From Escherichia coli (GTDB lineage Bacteria > Pseudomonadota > Gammaproteobacteria > Enterobacterales > Enterobacteriaceae), in assembly GCF_024298765.1 (NCBI RefSeq), contig NZ_CP101210.1: a DNA stretch of 64,000 nucleotides. One strand, written 5' to 3'. The position numbers and the translations under genes are program-made. Shown here one piece after another: positions 6,570 through 42,376 of this stretch. The notes under the pieces were generated by a model. That model saw only the letters and a program-made list of their open reading frames with translations, did not search any database and was not told the DNA's origin. The stretch's first letter is position 1; each line of letters opens with the position of its first letter.

Positions 6570-6690
6570 TTGACCATTGCTACCGACCGGGCCACCTTAA
6601 CACCCGGTCTGTATATAGACTATTTTTTACGCGCCGGAAGTCACTCTTAACGCCCTTCCGGCCCTTGCCAGGCGGCACAAAGGATGCGCT

Positions 6691-9600: not shown

Positions 9601-9807
9601 GAAGAAAATCTCAATGAAGAGGCGGCGAAACGCTATATTCGCACATCTTTAAAACGCGAATACGCCACCGAAAATGGCACGGAATTAAACGAGACACTGC
9701 CCAGACTCAGTCCTTTAAATCCGCAATATAAAACGAAAAAACAGACTGTTTTTCAAAAAATTAGCGCATTTATTGAAAAATTTAAGGGGGTGGGTGGAAA
9801 GATTTAG
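6691..9807 (+). CDS. hsdR: Type I restriction endonuclease subunit HsdR (SF2 helicase/nuclease)
   Basis: 1038 aa; helicase motifs TGSGKT and DECHRSQ; RBS aaagga before the ATG; gene order M-S-R as in type IC systems. The TAG stop sits directly against the IS5 end. Confidence 0.9.
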
Positions 9808-11598: not shown

Positions 11599-11605
11599 CG
11601 TTGAT

Positions 11606-11638
11606 ACCGCTCTGGCCCACAGCGCCAGAGCGGTTTTC
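11606..11638. terminator. Hairpin terminator between the convergent GntP-fragment and ykgG (stem accgctctggc / gccagagcggt, then TTTT)
   Basis: 11-bp perfect inverted repeat with a 7-nt loop followed by a T-run on the + strand, in the 49-bp gap between convergent stop codons. Confidence 0.5.
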
Positions 11639-11647
11639 CATCCTGCC

Positions 11648-13763: not shown

Positions 13764-13773
13764 CTCTTTCCCC

Positions 13774-14493: not shown

Positions 14494-14567
14494 AATAACT
14501 ACTCCATTGCTTCATTTCTGTTTATTGCGCTTGATATCGCGATATCAAACAAATGTTCATTCGTATT

Positions 14568-16265
14568 TCATGCCCAGTTTTTATGTTTGCTGGTTTTACC
14601 AATACCTGGATTCATAGTGTTGGTCGGATCATTTTCCTGATAAAAACGTGCCAAATTTTCCTGCGCTTTATACAGATGGCCGACATTGTGTTCCGCCGGA
14701 TATTGCGCTCCGCGTTGGCGCAGTAATTCCAGCATCTGTTCTTTTAACGCGTGGGCATCTACGCCTTTTTTAACGATATAATCCTGATGGAATACATGGC
14801 ACATAAAATGGCCGTAATAGAGTTTATGCACCAACTGACTGTCAATTTCCGCCGGTAAATGCTCATACCATTCGGTATCATTGCGGCGTAATGCAATATC
14901 CAGCGCGAGAATATCCTCAACCTCGTCAGAATGAACGGCCTGATAACGAATGGCAGCACCCGCGGCGGCAAAACGATGCAGAAACGCCTTACTGCCCTCT
15001 TCCGCGGTACAGGTAAAGAACGCGCCCTCGGCCGATTTAAAATAGTCCGTTAACCATGCCTGGGCTTCGGCCACACCCTCACCGGACATTTTCAACATCA
15101 GATGGTGTTCATAGTTATCGCGCCAGGTCTTCATCCGCGCCGGGAGATGGCTCGGGAACAGATGGCTAAAAGCCTGCATCGCGCGGTCGGTAAAGTGCGG
15201 GCGAAAGATCTTCACCTTCTCAAGTATGGCCTCGGTACGCCCCTTCAGGTTGAAGAAGAACGGCATTTTGTCCGTGCCAAGTTTGTCGATCATCAGGAAG
15301 GTATCTTTGCTGTATTTCTCTGCAATATCATAGATATCGCGGTGCATATACTCCCCAGCAACCGGCAGGTTTGTAAAATTCGCCAGGATGTGGCGGCGAA
15401 TCTCAGTCAGGACATCAGTCTGATTGGTACCGATATAAAAGACCTGCTGGTTCTTCTCGGCTTCAAAGGTATCCAGACGTACGGCAAACACCGCTAACTT
15501 GCCCGCACAGCCAGAGGATTCAAACAGGCGATCCGGGTCAGCGTTGTAACGTGCTGGCGTGTCGGCATTGATGTCCCGCACGCGGCTAACATAGTCGTGA
15601 TCGTGCGCGTGACGCCCGTCATGGTTGACGAGCACGGCTTCAATCGCATTGTTATCCAGCCGGGCAAGGATTTGCTCTGGCGTCTGACCTAGCTCAATGC
15701 CGAGGTGATTGACCAGCTGCAAGCGTCCCTGTTCATCAATACGGGCAAACAGCGACATCTCGGTATAAGCCGGGCCACGCTGGACCAGAGAACCGCCGGA
15801 GTTATTACAGATACCGCCGATAACCGACGCGCCGATGCACGAAGAGCCAATCACCGAATGCGGCTCACGGCCAAACGGCTTCAGCGCCTTTTCCAGCGAA
15901 TACAGCGTGGTGCCCGGATAAGCCAGCACCTGCTTACCCTCATCCAGCACATGCAGACTGTCCAGCCGCAGCGTGCTGATAATGACGATCTCGCGGTCGT
16001 AATCATTACCATTGGGCGTCGAACCCTCAGTCAGGCCAGTGTTCGACGCCTGCATCAGGATTATTTTATCGGCCTCAACGCAGGCGCTAAGGACTTTCCA
16101 GAGTTCAAGCAAAGAGCCGGGGATAACCACCGCCAGAGCATCACCCTGACCCGAGCGAAAACCCTTACGGTAACGCGCAGTTTTTGACGGTTCGGTGAGG
16201 ATATGAGCAGGGCCAACCAATTGGGTAAGAGTTGTCAAAAAGGTCTTATTATCAGTATGTTTCAT
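14568..16265 (-). CDS. dld: FAD-dependent, quinone-linked D-lactate dehydrogenase (Dld family)
   Basis: ORF 14568..16313; preferred start at MKHTDNKTFL (16265) with ggag about 10 nt upstream; FAD-binding signature GSSCIGASVIGGICNNSGGS; ~565 aa, full length for Dld. Confidence 0.7.
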   Translation of the reverse strand: MKHTDNKTFLTTLTQLVGPAHILTEPSKTARYRKGFRSGQGDALAVVIPGSLLELWKVLSACVEADKIILMQASNTGLTEGSTPNGNDYDREIVIISTLRLDSLHVLDEGKQVLAYPGTTLYSLEKALKPFGREPHSVIGSSCIGASVIGGICNNSGGSLVQRGPAYTEMSLFARIDEQGRLQLVNHLGIELGQTPEQILARLDNNAIEAVLVNHDGRHAHDHDYVSRVRDINADTPARYNADPDRLFESSGCAGKLAVFAVRLDTFEAEKNQQVFYIGTNQTDVLTEIRRHILANFTNLPVAGEYMHRDIYDIAEKYSKDTFLMIDKLGTDKMPFFFNLKGRTEAILEKVKIFRPHFTDRAMQAFSHLFPSHLPARMKTWRDNYEHHLMLKMSGEGVAEAQAWLTDYFKSAEGAFFTCTAEEGSKAFLHRFAAAGAAIRYQAVHSDEVEDILALDIALRRNDTEWYEHLPAEIDSQLVHKLYYGHFMCHVFHQDYIVKKGVDAHALKEQMLELLRQRGAQYPAEHNVGHLYKAQENLARFYQENDPTNTMNPGIGKTSKHKNWA

Positions 16266-16700
16266 GGAGGGCGGCTCTCCGCTCCTTATATCAGGGCCAG
16301 TGAAAATGGCCATAAGTTCATTTGTACGACAAAACAGAATATTCCCTCAATCAATATCCACATGCAATACCCCATTTTATTTCTTTCGGCACCGCTCACA
16401 TTTTTTAATGAAATTACCACTACCACATAATTCATACTCCGTTCTTTTACTGGATGCCAAAACGCTTATTTCATTTATTGCAAAGACCATTTCATACCTA
16501 TTAATGATTAACTCTAATGGGTATTATTATATTTAGTGGTTATTCATATTTAATAAAAAAATAACATTATTTATACAATTATTAACCTTTGTAACTTTAT
16601 TTCACTGAAGCGATTCAGTTTGCATTTTTTATTTTATTATTAAGGTAGCCTCCTTCCCCCTAAATATAGTTAAGTCTAAAAAAGTAAATCGGGAATTGTA

Positions 16701-18254
16701 ATGCACGAATATTTAATGTTTGCTCTGGCACTCTCTCCTTTGCTGCTGATGGTATTTTTAATACTGAAATTAAAAATGCCCATCCATTATTCCGTACTGA
16801 TCTCTTTGGTATTCACCGCTGCACTATCGGCAATATTCTGGGAAATGCCCACACAGAATCTGAAAGCCGCGATAGGCTATGGTGCACTGAAGGGACTATG
16901 GCCGATCGTAATTGTTATCCTCGGCGCTATCTTCAGTTATAACGTCATGCAGGCGACCAAAGCGCTGGATATTCTGCGCGATATTCTCGCCAGCATTAGC
17001 GAAGATAAGCGTATTCAGGTGCTGCTGATTTCATGGTGTTTTGGTGGATTTCTTGAAGCCGCTGCGGGCTATGGCACGGCGGTCGCTATTCCGATCGGTA
17101 TTCTCATTGCGCTGGGATTCAACCCGTTGAAGGCGGCGATTGCTTCCCTCGTAGCAAATACCGTTCCGACCGCATTTGGCGCGGTTGGAATCCCGGTTTC
17201 TATTCTGGCAGAGCAGGTTAATCTGCCGGTTTATACCTTAGGCGGAACCATTATTTTGCAGCTCGCGCTGTTTAATATCCTGCTGCCGTTTGTGATTGTC
17301 TGCATTATTGGCGGTGGCCTGAAAGCCATTCGCGGCGTATTTCTGATCACGTTGATTTGCGGCATTTCCACGCTGGTTCCGCAATATTTTGTCGCCATCC
17401 ATCTTGGCGCGGAATTACCCGCCTTTGCCGGTAGCCTGGTCAGCCTGTTTGCCGTGGCGATGGTCAGTCGCCTGCGCAAAGGGAAAACCGATCCCGAGTG
17501 GCGCATTGAGGTCAGCCATACCCGCGAAACCACGCCGCGCTCGGCAAAAGTGTTGTTCCGGGTTGGCTCTATTTATCTGTTTATTTTTGTGTTTATCCTG
17601 CTGTGTTCGCCGCTGTTCCCGACAATAAAAGGCGCGGCATCCCAACTGGCTTCGGTGCTGCATTTCACGTTGGCTGACGGCAAAACGATGGCGCTGAAAG
17701 TTGAATGGGCGACCACACCGGGGATGCTGATCATCTTTGCGACCATTATCGGCGGTTTTATTCAGGGAGCGTCCGCACGTGGGATGCTGGAAGTATTTAT
17801 CAAAACGATTTTCCAGCTTAAAAACTCTATCGTCGCAATTATGGCGATCGTCGCGCTGGCCACGGTGATGGATCTCAGCGGGATTATCTCCACGCTGGCC
17901 CAGTCGATTGTCGATCTGACCGGCAGCTCGTACGTCTTCCTCGCCCCGGTGATTGGCGCGCTGGGCACGTTCGTGACCGGCAGCGATACCAACTCGAACA
18001 TTCTGTTCGGCAAGCTGCAAACCATTGCCGCCAGCAAGTTACATATCGATCCTAACTGGCTGGCGGCGGCCAATACCTCTGGCGCTACGGGGGGGAAAAT
18101 GATTTCGCCGCAAAGCATCGCCATCGCAGTTTCTGCCACCAAAATGGACGGTCAGGCCAACCAGATTATGTCTGGCACCATGAAATACTGCTGCGCCTAC
18201 ATTGTGATCCTCGGCCTGAAAGTCGGTCTGTTTTATTACTGGTTTATGGCGTAA
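16701..18254 (+). CDS. Lactate permease family (LctP) transporter, a paralog distinct from LldP
   Basis: 517 aa multi-pass membrane protein with the LctP signature GSDTNSN; divergently oriented from dld across an AT-rich intergenic region. Confidence 0.8.
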   Translation: MHEYLMFALALSPLLLMVFLILKLKMPIHYSVLISLVFTAALSAIFWEMPTQNLKAAIGYGALKGLWPIVIVILGAIFSYNVMQATKALDILRDILASISEDKRIQVLLISWCFGGFLEAAAGYGTAVAIPIGILIALGFNPLKAAIASLVANTVPTAFGAVGIPVSILAEQVNLPVYTLGGTIILQLALFNILLPFVIVCIIGGGLKAIRGVFLITLICGISTLVPQYFVAIHLGAELPAFAGSLVSLFAVAMVSRLRKGKTDPEWRIEVSHTRETTPRSAKVLFRVGSIYLFIFVFILLCSPLFPTIKGAASQLASVLHFTLADGKTMALKVEWATTPGMLIIFATIIGGFIQGASARGMLEVFIKTIFQLKNSIVAIMAIVALATVMDLSGIISTLAQSIVDLTGSSYVFLAPVIGALGTFVTGSDTNSNILFGKLQTIAASKLHIDPNWLAAANTSGATGGKMISPQSIAIAVSATKMDGQANQIMSGTMKYCCAYIVILGLKVGLFYYWFMA

Positions 18255-23463: not shown

Positions 23464-24918
23464 ATGATGGAGAGCATTAATAATCAAGTGCAGTCGGTAC
23501 GCCAGTTGCTGGCCATTCCCCAACTGGCCATCCCAAGCTATCAGCGACCTTACCGCTGGGGCTCCAAGAATATCTCGGATCTCTTTACCGATTTGGCAAC
23601 CCATCAGGACAAGAGCGCCTACCGGCTGGGCTCGGTGGTGTTTCATCAGCACACCGATAGTGAGCAGGGCGAAATGCTTGATATCGTCGATGGTCAGCAA
23701 CGCACCCTGACCCTGATGTTGACCGTCAAGGCGCTGATCGAGGTGCTGGATAACGAAAATCGCAGTGGCAAAGAGAAGAGTATCCGGTTTCAACGTCAGG
23801 ATCTGCGTGAGCAATTGCAGGTCTTGCGTGGACCTATCGATGCGTTTATGCAGCGCCAGCGCTTCCCCAGCCGGGATTCGGAGTTCAACCTCAGACGTAA
23901 CTATCTGGAGTTGCGTCGGCTGGTGGCCCGCCCTGAGTTTGACGAGCAGCAAATTGACTTTCTGCTCAACCGCTGTCAGGTGGTCTGCTTTGTACTGCAG
24001 GATATCTCGGAGGCGTTCCAGTTCTTCGATTCGCAAAATGCCCGGGGGCGCGATCTGGCTCCTCACGATCTGCTCAAGGCATTTCACCTGCGCGAGTTTG
24101 CCGGTCATGAGGCCAATCTCAAGGCCGAGGCGGTCGCCCATTGGGAGCGCCTGCCAAGCGACGAGCTGGCCAATCTGTTCGCCCTCTATCTCTATCGGGT
24201 ACGCCAGTGGGCCGAGGGCAAGTCGGCCCGCTACTTTGGCAAGGGGGAGGTGGATCTCTTCAAGGGGGTCAACCTAGATCGGGTAGGGCATTATCCTTAC
24301 GTGGAGTCGCTGCGCATCGCCCACCACTTTGTCGATGAGTACAACAGCCAGTACCAGCGCAAGATTGACGGCCAGTACATGACGTTTCCCTTTCATCTCG
24401 ACCAGATGATCATCAATGGTCGGCGCTTTTTCGAGATGGCCGAGTACTACCAGACGCGGGTGGCCGCCATCGTGGCCGAGGAGTCTGATTCCGGCAAGGC
24501 GCAATCTGCCACCCTGCTCGGCGAAACGCTGACACCGATGGCCAGCAAGGTGCTATCGACCCTGGGCAGCTACGAGCGTCGCCACCGCACCGGGGATCGT
24601 TATGTGCGGGCCATGTTCGACTGCGCCCTGATCTTCTATATCGACAAGTTCGGCAGCCAAGGGCTGTCACTGGCCATCGAGAAGTGCTTTATCTGGGCCT
24701 ATCGCTGCCGCATCCGCCAGCAGGTAGTGCAGTTGGCAACCATGGATAACTATGTGCTGGAGCACAATCTGATCCGTGCCATTCGTGATGCTCGTCTGCC
24801 GGGAGATCTGCACGGCTTCCCTTTGCCTAGCATGAGCAGTCGAGAGAACAAGAACAATCGCAATGGTGCCGAAGATGAGCTGGTCGGGCTGTTTCGGGAG
24901 ATGAAATATTATGAATGA
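23464..24918 (+). CDS. DUF262 (ParB/Srx-like NTPase fold) protein; candidate defence component, GmrS-like
   Basis: 484 aa; DUF262 signature [10 protein letters not shown] ... [13 protein letters not shown] and [18 protein letters not shown]; RBS aggagg before the ATG; 3' end overlaps the next gene by 8 bp. Confidence 0.75.
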
Positions 24919-26953
24919 TGCAGGCGTTCGCCCCTTTTCCATTCGTGCACTGCTTGAAGATCGCGCCCGCTATCTGGTGCCCATGTACCAGCGCAACTAT
25001 GCCTGGGGTGAGGGAGAGATCACCCAGCTGCTGCAGGATGTGCTGGATTATCAGCAAAAATTGGTCAGTGGTAAGGGGCCGCAAACCTACTATATCGGCA
25101 CCCTGGTGGTGTTTGCCCGGGACGATGGCAGTTTCGAGGTAATCGATGGCCAGCAGCGCTTTACTACCCTCTCTCTGCTGGCCAATTGGCTCAAACATCA
25201 CGCGATAGATTCGGTGGATATGAGCTGGTATCAGACCATCAACCTCGCTTTTGAGAGTCGCCCGATATCGAGCCATACCTTCGAGCGCTTATGGCAGGGG
25301 GTTGCCCCCGACGATTTGCGGGGGAGTACCTTCAATGAAGGTTTGGTGAACGGTTTTGAGCTGATTGGCAAGGCAATGGCGGAGCTTGGTTTGGTAGGGG
25401 CTAAACTGACGGCCTTTTGCGACTACCTCTTCAAGCATGTGCAGATCTCTCGTATCGAAGTACCCAAGGATACCGATCTCAATCACTTCTTCGAGGCGAT
25501 GAACAATCGCGGCGAGCAGTTGGAAAAGCATGAAGTGATCAAGGCGCGGCTGATGGAGACGCTGAACCAGATACCCGAGGAAGAGCATCGTCGCCAAAGT
25601 ATTCATATCCTGACCCGGGTATGGGATGCCTGCGCCAATATGGAGCGCTATATCCAGTACGGCTTTACCCCGCAAGAGCGCCACCGTCTGTTTGGTGAGA
25701 GCGACTGGGGTCAGTTTGTGCCCCGTGATTTTGCCCATCTGCTTGATCTGCTAGGATCCCCAAACACGGCCGACGCTGCCGATAAAAGCCGTGCAGCTGC
25801 CGGTAGCCAAGGGCGCACCTTGTTGGCCATTTTGCAGGATGACAAGCTTGATGGTGAGCAGACGGTGGAGGAGGAGAGCGCAGGCTCCGAGCGCTTTAAC
25901 AGCGTCATCAACTTCTCCAACTTCTTGCTCCATGTGCTGCGACTCGTGAGCCGCGACCCGGGTAATACGGAGGGGGTGCCGCTTGATGATAAACAACTGG
26001 TCGATCAGTTTGAGCTGCGAGTGATAAGGCAACCGGATCCAGTAGCGGCAGTTCAGCGTTTTATCTATGGCCTGTTAAAGAGCAAGTATCTGTTTGATCA
26101 GTTCATCATCAAGCGCGAGTTTGCCGATGGCAAGGATAGTTGGAGTCTGAAGCGGCTGCACTGGTATTCGGAAAAGAGCGTCAGTTACATCAATACCTTT
26201 GACAAGGATGAAAATGAGAATGGTTTCTCTGGTGTTAACCGGCGGGTCCTGATGTTGCTGTCGGCGTTTCATGTGTCGACCCCGACCCTGGTTTACAAAC
26301 ATTGGCTGAATGGTGCACTGAGATATCTGTTCGACAATTGTCACCCTGATCAACCGGTGGATGCCGGGGCTTATCTGTCCTATCTGGAGAGTCAGGCTCG
26401 CCGCTTTGTCTTCCAGCGCTTTTTAGCGCCTGGTGAAGGGGCTTCCTATTACCAGATGCTCTACCTTGATAACGCCCTGTTGCCCGCCATCAATGTGGAT
26501 GAGAGTTGGCACAAGGTGATTACATCCAAACTTCGCTTCGGTCATATCGAGAACAACTTTGTCTTCAACTTCCTCGACTATCTGCTGTGGGTACGAGATC
26601 GGAATAGCGACAAAGTTGCTGGCTCCTTTGAGTTCACTTTCCGCAGCTCGGTGGAGCACTTCTCACCCCAGCATCCGATGGATGGCTATAAACCGGTTGA
26701 GCAGAGTGCACTCCATTCGTTTGGCAACCTTTGCCTTATCAGCCACAGCAAGAACTCGCGCTTGAGTAACTTCCAGCCGCAACAGAAGCAGGAGCACTTT
26801 GAAGCAAGCCTTGCCAATAACCAGACTGATAGTCTTAAATTGCTTGCTATGATTCGGCTGATGAAAGATAAAGGTCGTTGGCTGGAAGATGAGATAGCTG
26901 TGCATCAACAAGATATGTTGCAGGTCTTACTATCCAATCAAATTCAGCAATAA
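24911..26953 (+). CDS. DUF262-DUF1524 two-domain protein (GmrSD-like type IV restriction-enzyme architecture: N-terminal NTPase, C-terminal His-Me finger nuclease)
   Basis: 680 aa; N-terminal YQRNYAW ... [11 protein letters not shown] and [17 protein letters not shown] (DUF262); C-terminal [14 protein letters not shown] ... [17 protein letters not shown] (DUF1524-like). Confidence 0.75.
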
Positions 26954-29173: not shown

Positions 29174-32113
29174 ATGAGTAATTTTAATTTTCTAACAGAC
29201 ATCAGCCCTGAACTCGCTCAATTTGGTAAAAGTGCCGAGCTGTATTACCATGATGATAAGCAGGTAGCACTAGTGAAACTTAGGTGTTTTACTGAAGTAG
29301 TCGTTGGGGAAATTTATTCACGTTTATCGCTAACCCCACCTGTTCGTGATGATTTATATAATCGACTGCGCAGCTACGAATTCAAGGACGTTGTCAGTGA
29401 TAAGGGAATCTGGGCCAAATTAGATGTATTGCGACATAAAGGTAACAAAGCCGCCCACTCTAGCAATGGTTCAGACGAGATTTCCCTCAATGAAACACTC
29501 TGGTTAATCAAAGAAGCTTATTTAGTCGCCCGTTGGTATGCTCAAGCTATTCTCAATAAGCCTATCACTCCGCCAGAGTTTGTTGATCCGGTAAAACCTA
29601 TCGATCATACATCTCGCTTAGAAGCAGAGTTAGAACGGCAACGTCAAGAACTCAATAAACGAGAGGCTGAATTAAAGACCCAGCTTGCTGATAATAGTGA
29701 TAAATATCAACAACAGACGAGTGAGCTAATAGCTCAACTAGACGAAAAAAACGACACACTTTCCAATGTAAAAAAAGAGCAAGCACTATTACAGATTGAA
29801 CTTGAACAAAAACAAAAAGATCTAGTCGCTTCACAACAAGCCTTCTTTGATTACAGGACGCGTGAAGAGTTTAAACAAGCTAGTATTTCATCAGCTTCAA
29901 GCTTTGATCTTGATATGGAAGTGACGCGCCGAAATATTGATATATTTGATTGCTTTGAAGGAGTAAGTTTAACTAAAGGTCAAAACCAAATAGTTAAGCA
30001 AATAAATGAGTTTCTAACCGATACCAAACAAAACGTATTTTTACTTAATGGTTATGCAGGTACAGGTAAAACATTTATAACTAAAGGAATTACTCAGTAC
30101 CTAGAAAGAATTGGTCGTGAATTCGCTATTATGGCCCCGACGGGGAAAGCCGCGAAAGTGATATCAGACAAAACAATGCAACCTGCCAGCACTATTCACC
30201 GCGTGATATACAATTACGACAACGTGAAAGAGTACAAAGTTGACGGTGTGGAAGGGTCTGAAACTTATCGTTGCTATGCTGACCTTAAAGTCAATGTAGA
30301 TACTGCCGAAGCTGTTTATATAATTGATGAAGCGTCAATGGTTTCTGACAGATATTCCGATGGTGAGTTTTTTCGTTTTGGGAGCGGATATTTATTAAAA
30401 GACTTGCTCAAGTACATAAATATTGACCACAACGATCATAATAAGAAAGTTATTTTTATTGGTGATAATGCACAGTTGCCACCTGTTGGAATGAATACGT
30501 CACCAGCGCTAGATGCCAGTTACCTTAAAGAAAATTATCAAGTCGCTGTGGCTTCAGGGCACTTGACTGAAGTTGTTCGTCAAAAAGGTGATAGTGGTGT
30601 TTTGAACAATGCTGCCATGTTGCGTGACGGTTTAGAGCAAAATCTTTTCAATAAACTGAAATTTGAAGTTAATGATCATGATGTATTTAATTTGTCCTCG
30701 GAAAATCTACTTAGCACTTATCTAGACTCATGTGATAGAAAAGTTAGCCGTACAGGAGAAAGTATTATTATTGCTTCTTCAAACCGACAAGTAGCTGAGT
30801 ATAACCGTTTGGTTAGAGAGTACTTCTTTACTGGTCAACAGCAAATGGTCGCGGGAGATAAAGTCATTTCGGTAGCAAATCACTATCGAGCAGACGCTTG
30901 TATTACCAATGGTGAATTTGGAATGATCAAGGAAGTACTATCTCCTCATTCTGAGTTGATTAGTGTTGACATTAGCGTCAAAGGTGACACTGGTGACATG
31001 GTTAAGCGAAAAGTAAATCTGAGTTTTAGGGATGTGATTCTAGGCTTTCGCAACGACTACGGTGAACCATTCTTCTTTGAAGCCAAAATTGTAGAAAACC
31101 TACTTTACAATGATCAGCCGACCTTATCGTCAGATGAGCACAAAGCACTCTATGTTCACTTTTTAAATCGACACCCAGAACTGAGACGTAAAGGTAATGA
31201 ACAAAAGCTTAGAATTGCATTATTGCAAGATCCTTATTTCAATGCTTTTAAACTTAAGTTTGGTTATTCCATTACTGGACACAAAGCACAGGGTAGCGAA
31301 TGGAAAACTGTTTTCTTACAGTGTCAAACACACCAAAAAGCCTTAACTAAAGATTACTTCCGCTGGTTATACACCGCTATAACGAGAACTTCTGGCATCC
31401 TGTATGTAATGAATCCACCTCAGTTGCGCTTAGGAGATGGAATGAAAATAGCAGGAGCGTACCAACCCAAAGCAGTAAACCTAGACAATTCTGCTCCTGA
31501 AGGCGTTGAGGTTGTGCGACCAAGTACCGAAGCAACGAACTCAGTAGCCACAGCGAAGTTTGATTTTCAGACTGACATCCCGCAACTTAAAAAGCTATAC
31601 CAACTTGTTGATGCATGTATTGAAGGTACAGGGATTACTGTAGTGGATGTCCTTCATTATAACTATCAAGATCGTTACATCTTGCAGCGCGGGAATGAGC
31701 AGGCTTCGATAAGTTTCAATTACAAGGGTAACTGGAAAGTGTCTGGCGTAAAGAGCATTACTCAAGATGGGTTCGATGTTGAACTCATGGCTTTGCTTGG
31801 TCAATTAGAAGGTACTTTGCTCGATGTACCTGAGCCTTCAAAGGATACTCAGTTCCATTTTTCAGAGCCATTCTTAGAAGAGTTTTATCTAAATGTAATG
31901 GATCAAATCAACAGTGTTGGAGCTGATATAAGCAAAATTGAATCTCGTTCATTTTGTGAAAGATATGCATTTGTTAAAGGCAATGAGTTGGCGGTAATTG
32001 AGTTTTGGTACAACAAGTCTAGCCAGTTTACTAAAGTTCAACCTATGCCTCAGCTTAGTAATTCCACAAGGCTCATTGACGAAATAATATGTCAAATAGG
32101 TGTGCTTCTATGA
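29174..32113 (+). CDS. Large SF1B (RecD/Pif1/Dda-like) helicase with an uncharacterised N-terminal helical domain and a coiled-coil linker; candidate defence effector/sensor
   Basis: 979 aa. Helicase motifs: Walker A NGYAGTGKTF, IMAPTGKAAKV, Walker B IIDEASMV, motif III VIFIGDNAQLPPV, motif V/VI SITGHKAQGSEWKTVFL. N-terminal ~130 aa contains LDVLRHKGNKAAHS (possible DUF4145/HEPN-like R-x7-H); residues ~140-230 are a heptad-rich E/Q/K/L segment. No relaxase motifs. Confidence 0.75.
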   Translation: MSNFNFLTDISPELAQFGKSAELYYHDDKQVALVKLRCFTEVVVGEIYSRLSLTPPVRDDLYNRLRSYEFKDVVSDKGIWAKLDVLRHKGNKAAHSSNGSDEISLNETLWLIKEAYLVARWYAQAILNKPITPPEFVDPVKPIDHTSRLEAELERQRQELNKREAELKTQLADNSDKYQQQTSELIAQLDEKNDTLSNVKKEQALLQIELEQKQKDLVASQQAFFDYRTREEFKQASISSASSFDLDMEVTRRNIDIFDCFEGVSLTKGQNQIVKQINEFLTDTKQNVFLLNGYAGTGKTFITKGITQYLERIGREFAIMAPTGKAAKVISDKTMQPASTIHRVIYNYDNVKEYKVDGVEGSETYRCYADLKVNVDTAEAVYIIDEASMVSDRYSDGEFFRFGSGYLLKDLLKYINIDHNDHNKKVIFIGDNAQLPPVGMNTSPALDASYLKENYQVAVASGHLTEVVRQKGDSGVLNNAAMLRDGLEQNLFNKLKFEVNDHDVFNLSSENLLSTYLDSCDRKVSRTGESIIIASSNRQVAEYNRLVREYFFTGQQQMVAGDKVISVANHYRADACITNGEFGMIKEVLSPHSELISVDISVKGDTGDMVKRKVNLSFRDVILGFRNDYGEPFFFEAKIVENLLYNDQPTLSSDEHKALYVHFLNRHPELRRKGNEQKLRIALLQDPYFNAFKLKFGYSITGHKAQGSEWKTVFLQCQTHQKALTKDYFRWLYTAITRTSGILYVMNPPQLRLGDGMKIAGAYQPKAVNLDNSAPEGVEVVRPSTEATNSVATAKFDFQTDIPQLKKLYQLVDACIEGTGITVVDVLHYNYQDRYILQRGNEQASISFNYKGNWKVSGVKSITQDGFDVELMALLGQLEGTLLDVPEPSKDTQFHFSEPFLEEFYLNVMDQINSVGADISKIESRSFCERYAFVKGNELAVIEFWYNKSSQFTKVQPMPQLSNSTRLIDEIICQIGVLL

Positions 32114-33534
32114 ATGAGCCAGCTAATCGTACAGTAAATAATTTGAGAAAGAGCGGAGACCTGCAAGGGGCTTGGGAGTTTGGTTTTCAAGCGTTGCAGG
32201 CAGCTCCCCAAGATACTTACTTGAAAGGTGCTTTATTTTGGGTGTGTTATGAGTTTCTTAAGCACCAGCTTGAAAATCTAAATAAGCGAGCGAGTTCTTC
32301 AAACAACTATCGTCCTACTGATTTTGAATTTGAGCAAATAGAGAACTTGCTGCAAACCATAGTAAATTTAGATATTGCTACTGGCGGCCTAGAGTACAAA
32401 ATGCTGCTGGTTCAGTTTAAGAAGAGTTTGGAATGGTTTCCAACCTTGATTCACCTTGTGCTTCGACATCAAACTGTACTATTTGATGATGAGGCTAAAA
32501 CACCTTTTCAAGCTGAAAAAGGTGAAGTGCCAAGTTTGATGCTCTCAACAGCACGCCAAGTGGCGAGTGCATGGCTTAGAGCACGAGAGTATTGGCATCT
32601 AGATCTTAACCAAGTGATGGCATTTATTAACCAAACACGCGAGCAAGCCTCTGACACTAAACATATGATGTGGCTTGATTACGACCAAGCGAAGTGCCTT
32701 GTTGTTGCGGGCCAATACGATCAGGCTCGCGAACTCATTCTACCCATTTTAAGAAAGAAGCAAAAAGAGTCTTGGGCTTGGGGAGCGTTGGCTGCTACTT
32801 ATTCAAAACAAGATCAGCGTTTAGCAATGAAGTTTTTTGCTAGGGGAATAGTATCCGCACATGACGTTACTTTTAGTTTACGTTTATTACAGGGAATTAT
32901 TCCTTTATTACTTGCAAATCAACAGCAAGCTGAAGCCTCAATGTGCCTAAAAACGGCTATTGCGGCTTATCAAGCCCATGGGTGGAAGCTAAAGCAAGAG
33001 CTAGAACAGCTATCTATGCAGGCTTGGTATGATTCTGGTGTCGATGAGAAGCAACTGAGTCCTTTTTTAAACTCTATTTCTCACGACGCTTTAAATTACT
33101 TGCATGGGCCGATGGAGAAGGTTGTTGCTATCGTAGAGAATATCCATAAATCCGGTAAAGGCTTTCAAGTATTCGTAAATAAGTCGACATCACTATCAGT
33201 TCGCATGGGGGTTCATAAAGGTAAGCAGAAACCTCAGGCTGGTGACTATGTCGAGCTATCCGTAGCGAGTGTTGATGGAAACAAAGAAGTAGTAGCTTCC
33301 TCATCGTCCAAGCAAGTAGATATGGCTGATGTTTCGTATGTAGAGGGTACGCTTCGAATAGCACCCAAAGGCTTCGGATTTGTCGAGGATACTTTTGTTC
33401 CTCCCTTTGTTATAGGTAATTTAAAAAATGAAACAAAAGTCAGAGCACTCCGTATCATGAGTTGGGACAAATCTAAAGCTCGCCACAACTGGAAAGCGAT
33501 TAAGTTAACGGAACTAAATTTTAATGAAGACTAA
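32110..33534 (+). CDS. Uncharacterised protein with N-terminal TPR-like helical repeats and C-terminal cold-shock/OB-fold-like region, translationally coupled to the helicase
   Basis: Start at MNEPANRT (ATG 32110, overlapping the helicase stop; ORF-track start 32089 rejected); C-terminal ...GTLRIAPKGFGFVEDTFVPPFVI resembles the GFGF cold-shock/S1 motif. Confidence 0.65.
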   Translation: MNEPANRTVNNLRKSGDLQGAWEFGFQALQAAPQDTYLKGALFWVCYEFLKHQLENLNKRASSSNNYRPTDFEFEQIENLLQTIVNLDIATGGLEYKMLLVQFKKSLEWFPTLIHLVLRHQTVLFDDEAKTPFQAEKGEVPSLMLSTARQVASAWLRAREYWHLDLNQVMAFINQTREQASDTKHMMWLDYDQAKCLVVAGQYDQARELILPILRKKQKESWAWGALAATYSKQDQRLAMKFFARGIVSAHDVTFSLRLLQGIIPLLLANQQQAEASMCLKTAIAAYQAHGWKLKQELEQLSMQAWYDSGVDEKQLSPFLNSISHDALNYLHGPMEKVVAIVENIHKSGKGFQVFVNKSTSLSVRMGVHKGKQKPQAGDYVELSVASVDGNKEVVASSSSKQVDMADVSYVEGTLRIAPKGFGFVEDTFVPPFVIGNLKNETKVRALRIMSWDKSKARHNWKAIKLTELNFNED

Positions 33535-35282: not shown

Positions 35283-35846
35283 TCAGTTATGTCGTGGTCG
35301 GCCGCGGTTACTTTTTTCGGGAAGCCTGCTACGGCCCAGAATAATACCGTGTTCTTTCTGATCTTGTTTAGCCAGATAGCTAAGGGCGTAACGTAAGTCG
35401 TCTACCGCAGACTTATCACTATAGTGAATCACGTGATCGATACGCACCGGGTATTTATCTTTAGCCCGGCACAGGTGAAAATAACCCTCCCCTTCCGTGA
35501 TCCGCCTCCAGATATCCCCCAGTTGCCTGGATATCTGATAAGAGTTCTTGTGACGTTGCCCATCCAGATAGCCGATAAAATGAATATGAAGCCCTTTGTC
35601 TGGTGTATATTCCATAACCCAGTAATATCCTGCCAACATCGTCTGGGTTTCGCTAAGTAAACGGTATATTTCCATACACATACTGTGCTTACAGGAATGC
35701 CCGAAACTGGGCGTGTCTTTCCTGTAGGCAAAATCAATTCTGAAAGGTAACAGTTTAGAAAAACGTTGAAACAATCCCTCCATGTGTTCATTCACATCTT
35801 TCAGAATCGCGAAATTCATTTCGTAATTGGGATTGGCATTATACAT
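35283..35846 (-). CDS. YagK/YfjJ-family protein (CP4-type island conserved gene)
   Basis: 187-aa ORF; family assignment from memory of CP4-57/CP4-6 gene content and its position next to the yfjI-like and alpA-like genes. Confidence 0.45.
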   Translation of the reverse strand: MYNANPNYEMNFAILKDVNEHMEGLFQRFSKLLPFRIDFAYRKDTPSFGHSCKHSMCMEIYRLLSETQTMLAGYYWVMEYTPDKGLHIHFIGYLDGQRHKNSYQISRQLGDIWRRITEGEGYFHLCRAKDKYPVRIDHVIHYSDKSAVDDLRYALSYLAKQDQKEHGIILGRSRLPEKSNRGRPRHN

Positions 35847-36735: not shown

Positions 36736-38187
36736 TCAGAGGTCAAAGTTAGGTGCGACACACAACGTTTTTCCCTCAATAACCGGTACAACTCTGTTTT
36801 GTTCATACAGTAAATCCAGTAACCAGTTGATTTTATCCTTTTTCCGGAAACGGTTCGGACCACGCTGTAAAATATCATTTTTTTTCATACAGGGGATCCC
36901 CTTCTCAATGCAATAGCTTTTTATCCAGTTGAAAAGTTCAAGCTCCTCTGGAATGAGTCGCACAGGTACGGTCAGGGCAGGGTTGTCAAAAGTTAACGGA
37001 TTAGACAACCGCACATACTCATTACCGTACCATATTGCTAATTCTCTCGCCATTTCTGCAGTGTAAGGGGAAATGTCCCCCTCTTCACCGCTCGAATGGT
37101 GAATAAGTCCTGCCAGTCTTGCCATATACTCTGCATTTTTAGCAGCATATTCCCGGCAATGTCTTAAAGGCCCCAATCCCCCCAGCTTCGATTCCACATC
37201 GTTGTAATAATCCGTCCAGATTCTGGCAGCCTGAGGAGAAAAGTGAAGGCAACGTCGTTCACCACTCATCGCCAGATTTTCATCAATAAGCTCATTGATC
37301 CTCTGTTCAAACAAATCCTGATACTGTGATGAATAATTATCTCCGGTTATTATCCTTGTCCCCTGCGTTGATGTTGGTTGACACATCAAAAACCTTGCAT
37401 GATGTCCTGACGTTTTCACAAGTTCTTTTTTTCGCGTACAAAAACCTTTCTGGTAAACATCAGGCTGAATCATCACCGATACCGTCAGTCTTGGATCCTT
37501 CAAAATAATTCCGGGAGATGATTTCCTGTCGATGAAAAGAGAACCACCATCCCACAAAGAGTTAAGTATTCCAAGTTTACTCATTGCCCGGCCATCAAAA
37601 ATTATTCCTCCTTCACTGGATACAAGAGCAAAAGAGCGATTGCTGTCGGAATAATATTTTAACATTCCCTCTATCGTTGTCTCATTGAAAATTGTCCGGC
37701 GTATCTGCGGCGGAACAGGACATTTATTCAGATGTCTTTTAAGCTCTGACTCTGTTGCCTTACAATCTTTACCGGCGCGAATTTCTTTATGCAATTTTGA
37801 CTCCAGTGCTTTTTGCTTTTGCTCCCATATTTCCTTTTCTGTACTGTAATTCTCAACCAGTTTCGCGTATTCTTCCGCCAGGGCTTCATCCCTGAGATAA
37901 AATGCTTTCATAAACACTTTATCCACGGTCGTTTTCCTTTCACCGGAATCAGCCAGAATCAGAGAGTAAAGATTAACAGGCCCACGTAAATTTCCAGGTC
38001 TGCACACGTCAATCTGATTCTGACAGGCACTTGAGAACGCTGTTAATGCGGATGTCGCCACCATAGCCAAAGGTGCCTGTGTATTTTTTTGAGTTTCAAT
38101 TATTGCATTTCTCACCAGCGGTGGTAGTGCATATACCGGATAAGGATTTTCTGGTGCAAGTAAGCACATAAAAGCCTCTCTTTTCAT
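36736..38187 (-). CDS. YfjI-like protein (DUF3987 family), CP4/P4-type island conserved gene
   Basis: 483-aa ORF (alternative start at MCLLAPENPYP, 38169); synteny alpA-yfjI-yfjJ on the same strand as the tRNA, as in CP4-57. Confidence 0.5.
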   Translation of the reverse strand: MKREAFMCLLAPENPYPVYALPPLVRNAIIETQKNTQAPLAMVATSALTAFSSACQNQIDVCRPGNLRGPVNLYSLILADSGERKTTVDKVFMKAFYLRDEALAEEYAKLVENYSTEKEIWEQKQKALESKLHKEIRAGKDCKATESELKRHLNKCPVPPQIRRTIFNETTIEGMLKYYSDSNRSFALVSSEGGIIFDGRAMSKLGILNSLWDGGSLFIDRKSSPGIILKDPRLTVSVMIQPDVYQKGFCTRKKELVKTSGHHARFLMCQPTSTQGTRIITGDNYSSQYQDLFEQRINELIDENLAMSGERRCLHFSPQAARIWTDYYNDVESKLGGLGPLRHCREYAAKNAEYMARLAGLIHHSSGEEGDISPYTAEMARELAIWYGNEYVRLSNPLTFDNPALTVPVRLIPEELELFNWIKSYCIEKGIPCMKKNDILQRGPNRFRKKDKINWLLDLLYEQNRVVPVIEGKTLCVAPNFDL

Positions 38188-38399: not shown

Positions 38400-38645
38400 C
38401 CCGGTCTTTTTCCTTTCTCAGGAATCAGCCAGAACCATAGTGTAAATATTAACAGGCCCACGTAAATTTCCAGGTCTGCACACGTCAATCTGATTCTGAC
38501 AGGCAATTGACATCGCTGTTAATAATGATGTGGTAGTCATAGCCAGAGATGCTTTTTCATTGTGTTGAGTTTCAATTATTGCATTTCCAGTCATTGATGG
38601 TTGCGCATATACTGGATACGGAGTATCCGGTTTGATGTAAGACAT
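38400..38645 (-). pseudogene. Diverged partial duplicate of the 5' end of the yfjI-like gene
   Basis: 38400-38645 is ~85-90% identical to 37935-38187, including a 57-bp identical core; 75-aa ORF MSYIKPDTPYPVYAQPSMTGNAIIETQ... parallels the yfjI-like N-terminus then diverges. Confidence 0.6.
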
Positions 38646-38750: not shown

Positions 38751-38999
38751 TCATCTGGTCTGTATCCAGCAAAGAAGGTCACTTAACAACCATCCGCAAG
38801 ATTTCTTTCCGATAGACTTACGTGGTGGAAATTTTCCCTCCCGTTCAAGTTTCCACGCTTGTGTACGAGAAATTGACGTGATCTCATATCGTTCCTTTTC
38901 ACGTACCAGTCTGTCGCATTCAATCCCATAAGCTTTCAAAATGACCAGACGCTGTTCATCTGTTAATGGAAGCCACATACTACCCTCCTGATATATCAA
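38751..38999 (-). CDS. alpA: AlpA-family phage/island transcriptional regulator (MerR-like HTH)
   Basis: 82-aa ORF; C-terminal ...ITSISRTQAWKLEREGKFPPRKSIGKKSCGWLLSDLLCWI matches the AlpA pattern. Confidence 0.6.
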   Translation of the reverse strand: MIYQEGSMWLPLTDEQRLVILKAYGIECDRLVREKERYEITSISRTQAWKLEREGKFPPRKSIGKKSCGWLLSDLLCWIQTR

Positions 39000-39669
39000 T
39001 ACTTTTTATTTCCGGCATGAGCATGAAATGACTAAGTTTCCCGGATAAACAATGAGTGAAAGTCACTATCATTCATCCAGTCAACGCCTTGCAAATAAAA
39101 TGTAATACTATGATTTTTATAGGTCAAAATACTAAATTACAATGTTAAAATGGCTTTTAACAGAAAAAATAAAGACATATGGAACCAAATAAAAACAAGC
39201 CACGACCAATAAAAACAAAAGATTAATATTAAAAATCCATTATGACGATTTTTGTTGACTAAAATTAGGTTGGGATATATAAATAAATCCATGTAAAATT
39301 CAAACAAGGCATAGAGGAGCCGCAGGAAGGTGAAATATTTCCATCTAATTTGTGATAATCATCACAAAAATAAGCTACAACAAGCGGAGGAAAAGACAAT
39401 CTGTTGCTGAACAGACAGAAGCAGGCTACGAATGATCGGAAAATGAAGCAAATACGCTTATACAGAAGACGCAGAGGTAACTGACGGAGACAATCACAAT
39501 CAGGAGAAAATTATCGTAAATAATGTATAAAATCTCAGGATATAAACAAATGTACACAAGCTATCCACGTAATCAGCGGCTGGCTCAGGATTGACGTTTC
39601 ATTTCAGTGGACAACATCGATTCTGTCTGACAGCGGACCAATATGTAGCAAGCAGAAACTTCTGACATC

Positions 39670-41307
39670 ATGGTAACTCGGACAATGCAACAAAAGTATC
39701 AGTATGATCGTGTTTTATCCGGCGAACTCCACCCATTCCCTGGCATATACGAGGCGGTTTCCGAACAAATCCTTTTGCTCATTTTTAAAGCACGTCAACT
39801 ATATCAGGATCCAGAATATCGCCCCTGGTTTGAAGAACAGCACAGAGTACTCTCTGCATTACGTGCCAATACAGAGCTCCTGAGAATCTTTAGAGAACAA
39901 AGAAGCGCTGAAGAACCAAAGCTTACTATTGAAGAGTCTACCTCCCCCCAACCCACTCCTTCTGCTCTTACAGATGCGCTTAATGTGATGTGCCATTTAT
40001 ACAATGGTTTTGATGAAGGAAATATCAGTCTGAAAACCTGGGGGGCGATGCAAGAGGTACAGACAACATCAACCTTTATCAGCCCAGGACCGAGAACCTG
40101 GAAAACACCTGAACTGGCAAAGTTTGTAGGAGATGATTTATTTAATATTCTGACTGAATGTAAGGCCTGGAGTTCACCAATTCCAGCAGAAACCCGACAG
40201 GGGTATTGCCATCAGGATCTGTCTGTTGCACACTCCTGCACCTCAGAGTTACTGGCACACCTGAATCAATATCATGAAATTGATGAATCAGCAATACTTG
40301 CCAGAGTTATTGGTATAACAGTTAACGGATTCTACAAGAAAAATAATACAGACCTTCCAGAATGGCTATCCCCCTTTAAAGAGGAACATAAAATATTCAA
40401 AGATTGTCCGGAGCAAAATACCGGGGATGTAATCAGACGGAAAGAACAACTGTTGAAAACAGGACGTACAGAATTCGTGAATAATTTGTGTCGGGTCGCC
40501 AACTGGTATGAAATTGAGTCAATATACGATGAATACGTCCGTCTTTATGCCAATGAAATCATTGACTGGTTCAACAAAACCATGAAGTATTTTAAACCAA
40601 CAGATTTTATCCGATATACATGGAAATTCGCAACAGTTACTCCGGATAAAGATACAGAAACCGGGCATACAACTGCATGGGAAAAGGATTATTGCCAGAT
40701 AACCATACAACGTGATGAACTTCTGAGGTTGATTCACACTAATACCCTTCAGGATGCTGTAATTTATCTTTGTCATTGTCTGCAGGAGAAATACAAGAAA
40801 TCATCCCAGAATGAGACAGAGTTTCCAGGAATAAAACCTCCGGCATCAGAGAGTGAAATTAATATAACAGATAATTTTGAATTTCATTCTCTTCTGGAGC
40901 TAAGTAAAGATAATGAGAAGCGGCTGGAAACATTTCAAAAATGGTATGAAAAAAATAAAGTTTTGTTAGAAAGTCATAAACAAAAACGAACAGAGAAGAT
41001 TGACGTTGCCGTACGACTTGTAGGGCTGAAAGCCTATGATCTGCATGAAGGGATTCCGGATAGTCCAAAACGAAAAGTTAAAGATGGCATAAATGAAGAC
41101 ATCAAAGCCGATACCAGTTTACGCCTGTCAAAGACAAATATAAGTGATACGTCGCTAAACCGTTATCGCCGCACTGTTAAGGAGATTATCAATAACGAAA
41201 TCGACGCATTCCTGTTGGAACAGAAGAAAAAAAATAAAAGATTTCCCTACAGTGAAGATAGAGATGTGATTCGCCCTTTATGGGGAAAATGCCTGACCGG
41301 GCAGTAG
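39670..41307 (+). CDS. Hypothetical protein, 545 aa, no recognisable domain; AT-rich island cargo
   Basis: Long ORF after a ~670-bp AT-rich, purine-skewed upstream region; no motifs recognised. Confidence 0.5.
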   Translation: MVTRTMQQKYQYDRVLSGELHPFPGIYEAVSEQILLLIFKARQLYQDPEYRPWFEEQHRVLSALRANTELLRIFREQRSAEEPKLTIEESTSPQPTPSALTDALNVMCHLYNGFDEGNISLKTWGAMQEVQTTSTFISPGPRTWKTPELAKFVGDDLFNILTECKAWSSPIPAETRQGYCHQDLSVAHSCTSELLAHLNQYHEIDESAILARVIGITVNGFYKKNNTDLPEWLSPFKEEHKIFKDCPEQNTGDVIRRKEQLLKTGRTEFVNNLCRVANWYEIESIYDEYVRLYANEIIDWFNKTMKYFKPTDFIRYTWKFATVTPDKDTETGHTTAWEKDYCQITIQRDELLRLIHTNTLQDAVIYLCHCLQEKYKKSSQNETEFPGIKPPASESEINITDNFEFHSLLELSKDNEKRLETFQKWYEKNKVLLESHKQKRTEKIDVAVRLVGLKAYDLHEGIPDSPKRKVKDGINEDIKADTSLRLSKTNISDTSLNRYRRTVKEIINNEIDAFLLEQKKKNKRFPYSEDRDVIRPLWGKCLTGQ

Positions 41308-41393
41308 ATCACAGATGGGATAACATCCCGGTTATCCCCTGTTTGTTCTGCTTCAGGTTGCCGGAGCTCCAGGAACACGAGGCAATCGGCAAA

Positions 41394-41990
41394 TTATGCG
41401 GCTTTTCCATTAACAGATTCGGCCACAAGAACAACACCGTGTTTGTTTCGATCAGGATGTTCACTCCAGATTTCTGATTCAGGAATACTTTCCCCATCAT
41501 AGCAGATCCGATCACCATCAAACGAATAATACCGTGCGGAATCTGTATCTAAGATAAACACCTTAAAATTCGTTGAACGACGCGCTATATGCTGCCAGAG
41601 GGCTTTACCTCCTTCATATTGCTCGTTATCACTTAATAGTATAACGCCTGCTTTTGTGGCTATTGTTTCATAAACAAACGTAGCAAGGCTAACATCACGT
41701 ACAGCGCCATCGACAACAATCCCTTCAATCTGAGCAACGTCCTGTTCTTCCCAGAATTTCCGGACAAACACCCCTTCAAGCTGTGAACGACGCTGAAGCT
41801 CCAGAGTGGCAACAACCTTATGGCGAATATCACCATCAATAACAGAAGGTGCAGCTTCGATTACCGCAGCGAACGGAGTCTTTGGATCCCAGATGATCTG
41901 GTAAAGCACACCCTGAATAGTTACTCCATCCAGTATCGAAAAACGACGAGCTACAGTAGCAGGGGAGTAAGACATTGGAATGACAGCCAT
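41394..41990 (-). CDS. Hypothetical protein, 198 aa, no recognisable domain; occupies the tRNA-proximal slot where an integrase is expected
   Basis: ORF ~310 bp from the thrW 3' end; no tyrosine-recombinase motifs. Confidence 0.45.
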   Translation of the reverse strand: MAVIPMSYSPATVARRFSILDGVTIQGVLYQIIWDPKTPFAAVIEAAPSVIDGDIRHKVVATLELQRRSQLEGVFVRKFWEEQDVAQIEGIVVDGAVRDVSLATFVYETIATKAGVILLSDNEQYEGGKALWQHIARRSTNFKVFILDTDSARYYSFDGDRICYDGESIPESEIWSEHPDRNKHGVVLVAESVNGKAA

Positions 41991-42300
41991 TTTATGGCCT
42001 AAAATTTGAAAACATCAGTATCAATACTGACCTCATCAGTCTGAGCATATATTGATAAAGTTTTTATGTTTACACTCAATAAATACCTTGCCAAACAACT
42101 AATAGCGATGTCTACATTGCCATTCGACATGCTTACAATTTTTGTCAACAAGAAAGTGAATTTATATCAACGGTAAGAAGTAAACACGAGGACACCAAAA
42201 CCAAATGTACACACTTTTGTGCTTTGTGTCCCCTGTGTGTACCCAAATGACAAACTGCAAGAAAATCTAGGCACACACTTATCTAACTTATTGATTTAAA

Positions 42301-42376
42301 TGGTGCCGATAATAGGAGTCGAACCTACGACCTTCGCATTACGAATGCGCTGCTCTACCAACTGAGCTATATCGGC
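42301..42376 (-). tRNA. thrW: tRNA-Thr (anticodon CGU)
   Basis: Reverse complement gccgatatagctcagttggtagagcagcgcattcgtaatgcgaaggtcgtaggttcgactcctattatcggcacca: cloverleaf with anticodon loop attCGTaat, T-loop ggttcgactcc, encoded CCA. Confidence 0.95.

Follow-up and report, generated by a model that had tools for sequence, protein, structure and literature searches.

The thrW end of an Escherichia coli genomic island, its distal integrase and two little-studied gene families

Genes and features at thrW

The window, by which we mean the whole 64,000-nucleotide stretch of Escherichia coli DNA that was analysed, contains thrW and, next to it, two genes here called hyp198 and hyp545. The layout described in the original prediction, an ORF of 198 aa at thrW and a divergent ORF of 545 aa, followed by genes resembling alpA, yfjI and yfjJ, was recovered at the same positions. 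The features are:

42301..42376, minus strand: thrW, tRNA-Thr(CGT), the integration target (ARAGORN; Rfam tRNA 71.8 bits)
42291..42346, minus strand: attL core, 56 bp, reaching from the anticodon loop to a point 10 nt beyond the 3' end of the tRNA
41991..42290, minus strand: attL arm, island-specific, the interval from core to hyp198
41394..41990, minus strand: hyp198, putative divergent GNAT-fold acyltransferase-like protein (phrog_7522), 198 aa
41317..41338, plus strand: stem-loop GGGATAACATCCCGGTTATCCC (terminator-like scan, consensus match only)
39670..41307, plus strand: hyp545, orphan mostly alpha-helical family without known domain, 545 aa
39000..39669, plus strand: AT-rich non-coding spacer or leader, with divergent alpA and hyp545 on either side
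38751..38999, minus strand: AlpA-family excisionase/regulator (phrog_2790 E 2e-23; RefSeq AlpA-family or HTH regulator)
38418..38645, minus strand: N-terminal fragment of a second yfjI (DUF3987) (RefSeq pseudogene; translation parallels the YfjI N-terminus)
36736..38187, minus strand: YfjI (DUF3987), helicase/primase-like island core gene (phrog_2373 E 2e-63; RefSeq YfjI family)
35283..35846, minus strand: YfjJ/YagK (inovirus Gp2-type), island core gene (RefSeq annotation)

According to RefSeq annotation of the identical sequence and PHROG, the island backbone set is present with alpA, yfjI (DUF3987), yfjJ/yagK, GTPase, RadC/JAB and CbtA/CbeA genes. The yfjI fragment at 38418..38645 is a recombination scar. 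The stem-loop at 41317..41338 lies between the convergent hyp198 and hyp545 and is a possible shared terminator. Both are real genes rather than chance ORFs, being subject to purifying selection (dN/dS 0.03-0.44) and intact in every examined copy, and the pair occurs in 695 of 5426 complete E. coli genomes (~13%). That they would be degraded fragments of an integrase gene was ruled out, since both are intact, under selection and of unrelated folds. Codon 6 of hyp198 may be its true start.

The 670-bp leader was correctly described as AT-rich and purine-skewed, with a GC content of 0.35 and a purine fraction of 0.59 over 39000-39669; the GC content of the flanking core genes is 0.52-0.58. It does not hide a gene, as none of its ORFs is conserved across island variants, and no structured RNA or sRNA was found in either leader or attL arm, the tRNA being all that Rfam matches. 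The spacer does contain a perfect CRP-consensus palindrome, TGTGATAATCATCACA, at 39351-39366, which is the window's only exact match (expected 0.06) and is conserved 5' of hyp545 homologues.

Island ends and the distal integrase

The claim that the island at thrW lacks an integrase holds for the window itself, since RefSeq lists only IS transposases and fragments for positions 1-64000 of the identical sequence and a tyrosine recombinase is absent, but fails for the island, whose integrase lies outside the window edge. The matching genome carries the island as an insertion of 48 kb, the two ends of which are marked by a direct repeat, perfect over 56 bp, of the 3' half of thrW. The 25-mer of the thrW 3' end given with the prediction occurs once in the window; the search for a repeat beyond it recovered the complete core, exact 25-mer included, at L008 3634-3689 (longest common substring and fuzzy search). 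Looking for an integrase at the distal island end was equally successful: an intact P4-type integrase of 439 aa (PRK09692 E 2e-22, phrog_1 E 1e-52), without pseudogene flag, lies 4.2-5.5 kb past the window's left edge, its start codon 166 bp from the attR core and its transcription pointing away from that core. Hence the suggestion that the integrase was lost and the island immobilised has to be dropped by the prediction's own criterion. The premise of an integrase beside the tRNA fails as well for thrW islands, because intF of K-12 CP4-6 is also distal. Since thrW islands carry the integrase at the far repeat, calling it absent hinges on where the window ends, and the lack of an integrase beside the tRNA does not mean that an island is immobilised.

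Both island ends have the same structure in 2020CK-00188, MB50 and 13P460A despite differing cargo, the attR core of MB50 and 13P460A not being recovered at full length. In NCTC10444 the site is empty: proA-thrW is directly followed by the LysR/SDR genes that here are located past the distal repeat. The 310-bp stretch 41991-42300, which takes in the arm and the core's final 10 nt, occurs at 95% identity or more in only 278 E. coli genomes, each time in the same configuration; the integrase, WP_000144688, occurs in 195 genomes. In the plasmid collection, matches extend into this stretch only in a handful of near-identical records from E. coli, including one of 1.2 Mb. The stretch is no relic of a known thrW element, given that relatives outside this configuration are lacking in the 5426 E. 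coli genomes as well as in the phage collection. Within the attL arm are an inverted repeat, GTACACAC/GTGTGTAC, and TTTGGGTACACA at 42236-42244; the 9-mer GGGTACACA is confined to the two att arms in the three strains (~290 kb searched), with two copies in the integrase-proximal arm.

Elsewhere on the chromosome, sister islands have the integrase, hyp198, hyp545 and alpA as a contiguous block in which the integrase is immediately 5' of hyp198, and homology with these integrase-bearing islands ends at the start of the hyp198 gene. The region is probably the attL-proximal end of a ~48-kb CP4-6/CP4-57-type thrW island with a distal integrase and with hyp198 and hyp545 as accessory genes. The integration module, integrase plus attP, would be turned round compared with the sister islands, because of which integration would part the integrase from hyp198. 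As the sister islands have the integrase directly upstream of hyp198, excision would recreate that neighbourhood by bringing the two together again across attP. The 300 bp from the thrW core to hyp198 would be the cognate attL arm with GGGTACACA as putative arm-type integrase site. By analogy with CP4-57, AlpA may activate both expression of the integrase and excision; such activation by AlpA, reportedly described by Kirby, Trempy and Gottesman in 1994, is the established model for the CP4-57 family. The accessory genes hyp198 and hyp545 would stand outside the recombination machinery.

The architecture might also result from a tandem array with later deletions. A CP4-57-like element with a tRNA-proximal integrase would have inserted into thrW beside an older thrW island, after which deletions removed the newcomer's integrase along with the internal thrW repeat and nearly all of the older island, of which only the integrase at the distal repeat stayed. 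What is seen today would on this view be a composite island with a body that lacks a cognate integrase. Such a history would fit a body that is convergent with the distal integrase and inverted with respect to K-12 CP4-6, the toxin-antitoxin/DUF4942 end adjoining the integrase here. It would also fit the exact break of homology at hyp198, right before which the sister-island integrase sits. Moreover, tandem integrases are known at the locus, as 13P460A has a second one past the distal repeat. We nevertheless regard it as unlikely: two deletions would have had to be precise and to become fixed in the same form in three strains that differ in cargo, and no internal thrW fragment was found within the island, even when up to 3-4 mismatches were allowed. 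Furthermore, the attL arm has no relative beside any other integrase in the 5426 genomes, and the 12-mer TTTGGGTACACA is common to the attL arm and the integrase-proximal arm and occurs nowhere else.

The island with a distal integrase thus favoured is itself of an ordinary kind. It does not have the traits of PICI or P4-like satellites, since it measures 48 kb rather than ~10-20 kb and no terminase, capsid, sid/psu/delta or rpp is annotated.

Two families in search of a role

That neither ORF has a recognisable motif was borne out by Pfam and NCBIfam, which give no match to hyp198 or hyp545. Still, fold and motif suggest that hyp198 is a divergent GNAT, a putative acyl-CoA-dependent acyltransferase. 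It has the GNAT fold and, judged over 80 family members, motif A (Q/R-x-x-G-x-G/A, the acyl-CoA pyrophosphate-binding loop): position 98 is R, K or Q in 64/80, position 101 is G in 63/80 and position 103 is A or G in 70/80. The family thereby resembles the GNAT superfamily in retaining [R/K/Q]xxGx[A/G] following strand beta-4, and differs from it by an unusually beta-rich N-terminal half and a signature of its own, SDxxQYxGGKxLW. The allele in the window reads RDVSLA (G101S), other island copies RDVGLA. The curated GNAT model gave no significant match, with Acetyltransf_1 reaching E-values of 1e-3 to 0.1 in just six of the 80 members, and the best PDB profile match (E 0.27) is without significance. 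A protein of 1175 aa with a hyp198-like domain was screened for fusion partners and contains zero Pfam domains. Members of phrog_7522 are spread over P1-like phage-plasmids, a T4-like phage contig and integrase-adjacent slots. Some homologues are found at seemingly ordinary chromosomal loci. The GNAT toxin of a toxin-antitoxin pair was set aside as a candidate because P1-like phage-plasmids carry the gene by itself, without an antitoxin-like partner.

The hyp545 model is mostly helical. None of 36 family members matched Pfam, and AFDB50 returns family members alone. UniProt names two homologues tRNA-dihydrouridine synthase; this was rejected since the Dus TIM-barrel FMN domain is missing. Homology with YfjH, which occupies the same slot in CP4-57, was likewise discarded (hhalign probability 0.2%). 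Homologues are found in P2-like prophages (gpV-gpS interval), an ICE tra region, a Vibrio int-alpA slot and lone islets, so that the family recurs in variable sites of four mobile-element kinds, among which hyp545 would travel as a self-contained unit that includes ~340 bp of upstream DNA with the CRP-type palindrome. In other genera, Klebsiella and Serratia among them, it has exchangeable small partners, either a very acidic protein of 137-145 aa or a glycine-zipper membrane protein; by tblastn the leader contains no remnant of such partner genes.

Both families recur in other mobile elements, and the cargo alternative of the original prediction is still the best reading. On fold and genomic context, hyp198 and hyp545 are most likely cargo of mobile elements and may serve in conflicts with phages, be it exclusion, defence or counter-defence; acylation of some target by hyp198 would be a conceivable mechanism. 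More specifically, and tentatively, hyp545 might be the first representative of an MGE/phage conflict module that consists of a single gene and has so far gone undescribed, with the phrog_7522 GNAT as a second, independent factor of this kind. Neither protein was matched in PADLOC-DB v2 at E<=0.1, the same search finding PDC-M16A/B elsewhere in the island, and no link was found from either to the Tai tail-assembly-inhibition systems as described in the literature.

Alternatively, the two could provide backbone functions of the island family in excision, replication or transfer regulation, for example hyp545 as a DNA-binding regulator acting on the alpA-hyp545 spacer and hyp198 as a modifier of the integrase or of a host factor. 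In E. coli the pair invariably lies between integrase (or attL) and alpA and has diverged together with the island family, hyp545 down to 59% amino-acid identity; this tight binding to one island family resembles a backbone module more than freely swapped cargo. A remote hyp198 homologue (30% identical) directly 3' of a P4-type integrase and the Vibrio hyp545 homologue, which is also located from int to alpA, point the same way. Against this, hyp545 homologues exist outside islands, among P2-like prophage tail genes, ICE tra genes and in lone islets, hyp198 occurs alone in P1-like phage-plasmids and the T4-like phage contig, CP4-57 fills the equivalent slot with the unrelated yfjH, and HTH families are not significant in any hyp545 family member. 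On balance a backbone role seems improbable. The locus highlights two widespread and unstudied families, a GNAT carried by phages and islands and an orphan protein of 540 aa, which are reasonable candidates for phage defence or counter-defence screens.

Comparison with known systems

The gpS-gpV interval in which P2-like Klebsiella prophages carry hyp545 homologues together with a small divergent partner is akin to the accessory (moron) sites of P2-like phages. In P2 itself this interval holds the non-essential orf30. Defence systems have been shown at another P2 hotspot, the gpA-gpQ (old/tin) locus (PMC9122126), and not at the site of the hyp545 homologues; two papers on P2 hotspots gave no mention of the S-V site as a defence hotspot.

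CP4-57 (ssrA-intA-yfjH-alpA-yfjI-yfjJ) has the same alpA-yfjI-yfjJ order, and its slot from integrase to alpA also holds a divergently oriented uncharacterised gene. It differs in that its integrase adjoins the tmRNA gene rather than being at the far end, and that its slot is without a GNAT gene.

The integrase here is only 25% identical to IntF of K-12 CP4-6, body orientation relative to the integrase is reversed, the arms are unrelated, and CP4-6 has neither hyp198, hyp545 nor an alpA-yfjI block beside thrW. In other respects CP4-6 is very similar: it shares thrW as target, with a 56-bp core that is the same save for one mismatch, an attR-end tyrosine integrase (intF by ptwF) whose transcription leads away from the partial copy of the tRNA, the chromosomal junction on the right (LysR/yagP, pao genes) and the GTPase, RadC/JAB, DUF987 and CbtA/CbeA-type toxin-antitoxin backbone genes.

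The tmRNA islands I23, I44 and I55 of Pseudomonas belong to another genus, use another target gene with a 14-bp core and have a tRNA-proximal integrase. By their published description they can nonetheless be likened to the thrW island: once integrated they have the tyrosine integrase at one end and AlpA at the other, their core genes include RadC and inovirus Gp2-like ones, and their cargo is variable and rich in defence genes (PMC12595487).

Boundaries and content of the thrW island

The original prediction placed two unrecognisable AT-rich ORFs in the integrase slot at the thrW end of the island. Both lie where described, and hyp198 (the ORF adjoining thrW) and hyp545 (the divergent ORF beside alpA) have zero matches in Pfam or NCBIfam. 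The features at this end are:

42301-42376, minus strand: thrW, tRNA-Thr(CGT)
41394-41990, minus strand: hyp198, 198 aa
39670-41307, plus strand: hyp545, 545 aa
38751-38999, minus strand: AlpA-like gene
38418-38645, minus strand: DUF3987 (YfjI) fragment
36736-38187, minus strand: YfjI
35283-35846, minus strand: inovirus-Gp2/YfjJ-type gene

Right of thrW the chromosome continues with proA, proB, phoE, crl, frsA, gpt and pepD. The thrW-side tip is richer in AT than the core genes, and the 670-bp spacer between alpA and hyp545 has a GC content of 0.35 and 59% purine. As predicted, no tyrosine recombinase is annotated anywhere in the window according to the RefSeq annotation of the identical sequence.

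That sequence is the chromosome of strain 2020CK-00188, in which the island proceeds leftward through type I restriction-modification genes, GTPase, Ag43, JAB/RadC, DUF987, CbeA/CbtA, DUF5983, DUF957 and DUF4942 to a tyrosine integrase of 439 aa (WP_000144688.1), located 4.2-5.5 kb outside the window, past position 1. Both phrog_1 and the P4-type integrase model PRK09692 match this protein, and 166 bp separate its start codon from an exact duplicate of the 3' half of thrW. The perfect direct repeat of 56 bp reaches from the anticodon loop to a point 10 nt beyond the end of the tRNA, with its copies 48.0 kb apart:

window 42346-42291: 56-bp repeat, thrW copy
L008 (locus past the left edge of the window) 3634-3689: 56-bp repeat, distal copy

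In NCTC10444 the thrW site is empty: the LysR and SDR genes, here found past the distal repeat, come immediately after proA-thrW. The proposed search beyond the window for a thrW 3'-end repeat and a distal integrase has thus found both, and the reading that the integrase was lost and the island immobilised is refuted. The island is an integrative element of ordinary kind at thrW, probably complete, whose integrase lies beside the far repeat.

Several further observations concern the island and its surroundings. Directly past the distal end in 13P460A lies a second, different tyrosine integrase (WP_001130502.1; L025 1-682), therefore tandem thrW occupation occurs in some strains. The fragment at 38418-38645 consists of 75 codons duplicating the YfjI N-terminus just upstream of intact yfjI; it is also present in sister islands L002 and L011, related islands at other chromosomal sites, and looks like a recombination scar between two island variants. 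Between IS903B and the stbA/IS1 region, two genes inside the island (29174-33534, plus strand) encode a 979-aa helicase/ATPase and a 481-aa TPR protein, which match A and B of the PADLOC candidate defence system PDC-M16 (E = 0 and 2e-251). Since the island also holds a pair of DUF262 proteins (23464-26953, plus strand), which resemble GmrSD-type modification-dependent nucleases, together with all of a type I restriction-modification operon (hsdM, hsdS, hsdR; 3790-9807, plus strand), it is rich in defence genes. A lactate-utilisation block (~11600-18254; lutABC/ykgEFG-like, dld, L-lactate permease) lies between ISKpn26 and IS1 copies; in MB50 and K-12, ykgEFG is not part of the island but lies farther along the chromosome, a difference that suggests rearrangement or capture mediated by IS elements.

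Single or composite element

It is conceivable that a tandem array followed by deletions produced a composite island, since the island body and the distal integrase converge and the body is in opposite orientation to that of CP4-6, the K-12 cryptic prophage at thrW. Against this, both ends are common to three strains with differing cargo (2020CK-00188, MB50 and 13P460A), one consisting of thrW, a 300-bp arm, hyp198, hyp545 and alpA, the other of DUF4942 and the convergent integrase. In each of the three the thrW-side arm has one copy of the 9-mer GGGTACACA and the integrase-side arm has two, with no others in the ~290 kb examined; the 12-mer TTTGGGTACACA is common to both arms in the same orientation. 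These shared motifs have the pattern expected of arm-type integrase sites on one attP. Also against a composite, the island contains no internal thrW fragment, and the 310 bp beside thrW (41991-42300) are always in the present configuration, never next to another integrase, in the 278 genomes with a match. In the excised circle of a single element, integrase and hyp198 would adjoin across attP.

At other chromosomal sites the pair is part of a conserved gene block in the order integrase, hyp198, hyp545, alpA, yfjI, Gp2. Homology between the window and these sister islands is lost no more than a few bases from the hyp198 start codon, a break that fits an exchange of integration modules, and their integrase is only 23% identical to that of the thrW island.

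The hyp198 and hyp545 families

The pair is found in 695 of 5426 complete E. coli genomes, and both genes are intact in all copies, with dN/dS of 0.03-0.38 (hyp198) and 0.26-0.44 (hyp545). Between the same islands hyp545 is diverging much faster, at 59-70% amino-acid identity versus 92-97% for hyp198. When the window block 39670-41990 is compared with locus L003, dS is 0.42 for hyp545 and 0.15 for hyp198; such inequality of adjacent genes suggests recombination inside the block.

Hyp198 matches phrog_7522, a family without assigned function. Lone homologues, 87% identical, lie between repL/IS605 and bplB in the P1-like phage-plasmids SJ46 and RCS47; remote ones occur in a T4-like phage contig, immediately downstream of an integrase of P4 type, and at chromosomal positions that look ordinary. 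None of the curated GNAT sequence models gives hyp198 a significant match. The family retains GNAT motif A, [R/K/Q]xxGx[A/G], after strand beta-4, and SDxxQYxGGKxLW is an invariant signature of its own. In motif A, the allele of the window has the substitution G101S (RDVGLA to RDVSLA); Gly101 is present in five other copies (four from islands and that of RCS47), and Ser in 7/80 family members.

Homologues of hyp545 form only 37 clusters, all unnamed, from Enterobacterales, Vibrio and Aeromonas. Distant ones lie between the gpV and gpS tail genes of P2-like Klebsiella prophages, within the tra genes of a Proteus ICE, in a Vibrio island with int and alpA on either side, and as lone insertions in Serratia and one further contig. 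The UniProt name "tRNA-dihydrouridine synthase" of two homologues, AFDB entries A0ABC7ZZ27 and A0A085GKA2, is without sequence or predicted-fold support. About 340-350 bp of upstream DNA accompanies the gene in all these distant contexts, and the small divergent partner gene differs by context. The partner is a strongly acidic protein of 137-145 aa (pI ~4; 65% identity between one from a Vibrio island and one from a P2-like Klebsiella prophage), a glycine/alanine-rich, glycine-zipper-like membrane protein of 104-107 aa or, in some contexts, another small protein. Neither of the first two types matches PHROGs or NCBIfam, and E. coli copies of hyp545 have neither partner gene nor remnant. The genes of those two types, all divergently transcribed, are:

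L013 7225-7662
L012 7245-7658
L019 6330-6653
L016 2274-2588

Upstream of many family members is a perfect or near-perfect TGTGA-N6-TCACA palindrome, the CRP consensus, ~300 bp from the hyp545 ATG in E. coli and ~20-30 bp in Serratia and L016; 0.06 are expected by chance within the window. Perfect copies are:

window 39351-39366
also in L002, L003, L011, L016, L019 and L020

Neither hyp198 nor hyp545 is a recombination gene. Their occurrence in unrelated mobile elements and the rapid divergence of hyp545 point to putative accessory genes for mobile-element/phage conflicts. Of the predicted cargo such as effectors or defence/anti-defence genes, accessory status is the favoured reading; a role in such conflicts we only infer, PADLOC recognising neither protein. 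Since the pair keeps to a single island family in E. coli, a role as backbone regulatory genes is possible.

Relation to known islands

The island is an additional example of an already known island type, with two widespread uncharacterised accessory gene families. CP4-6 of K-12 has the same geometry (thrW, island, intF, ptwF), and the same 56-bp thrW core, differing by one mismatch, flanks it (L009 902-957 and 35210-35265), but IntF shares only 25% identity with the present integrase and the body is inverted; therefore two distantly related integrases use the same core, both at the attR end. Pseudomonas tmRNA islands (PMC12595487) provide a published precedent for an integrated element with int at one end and alpA at the other.
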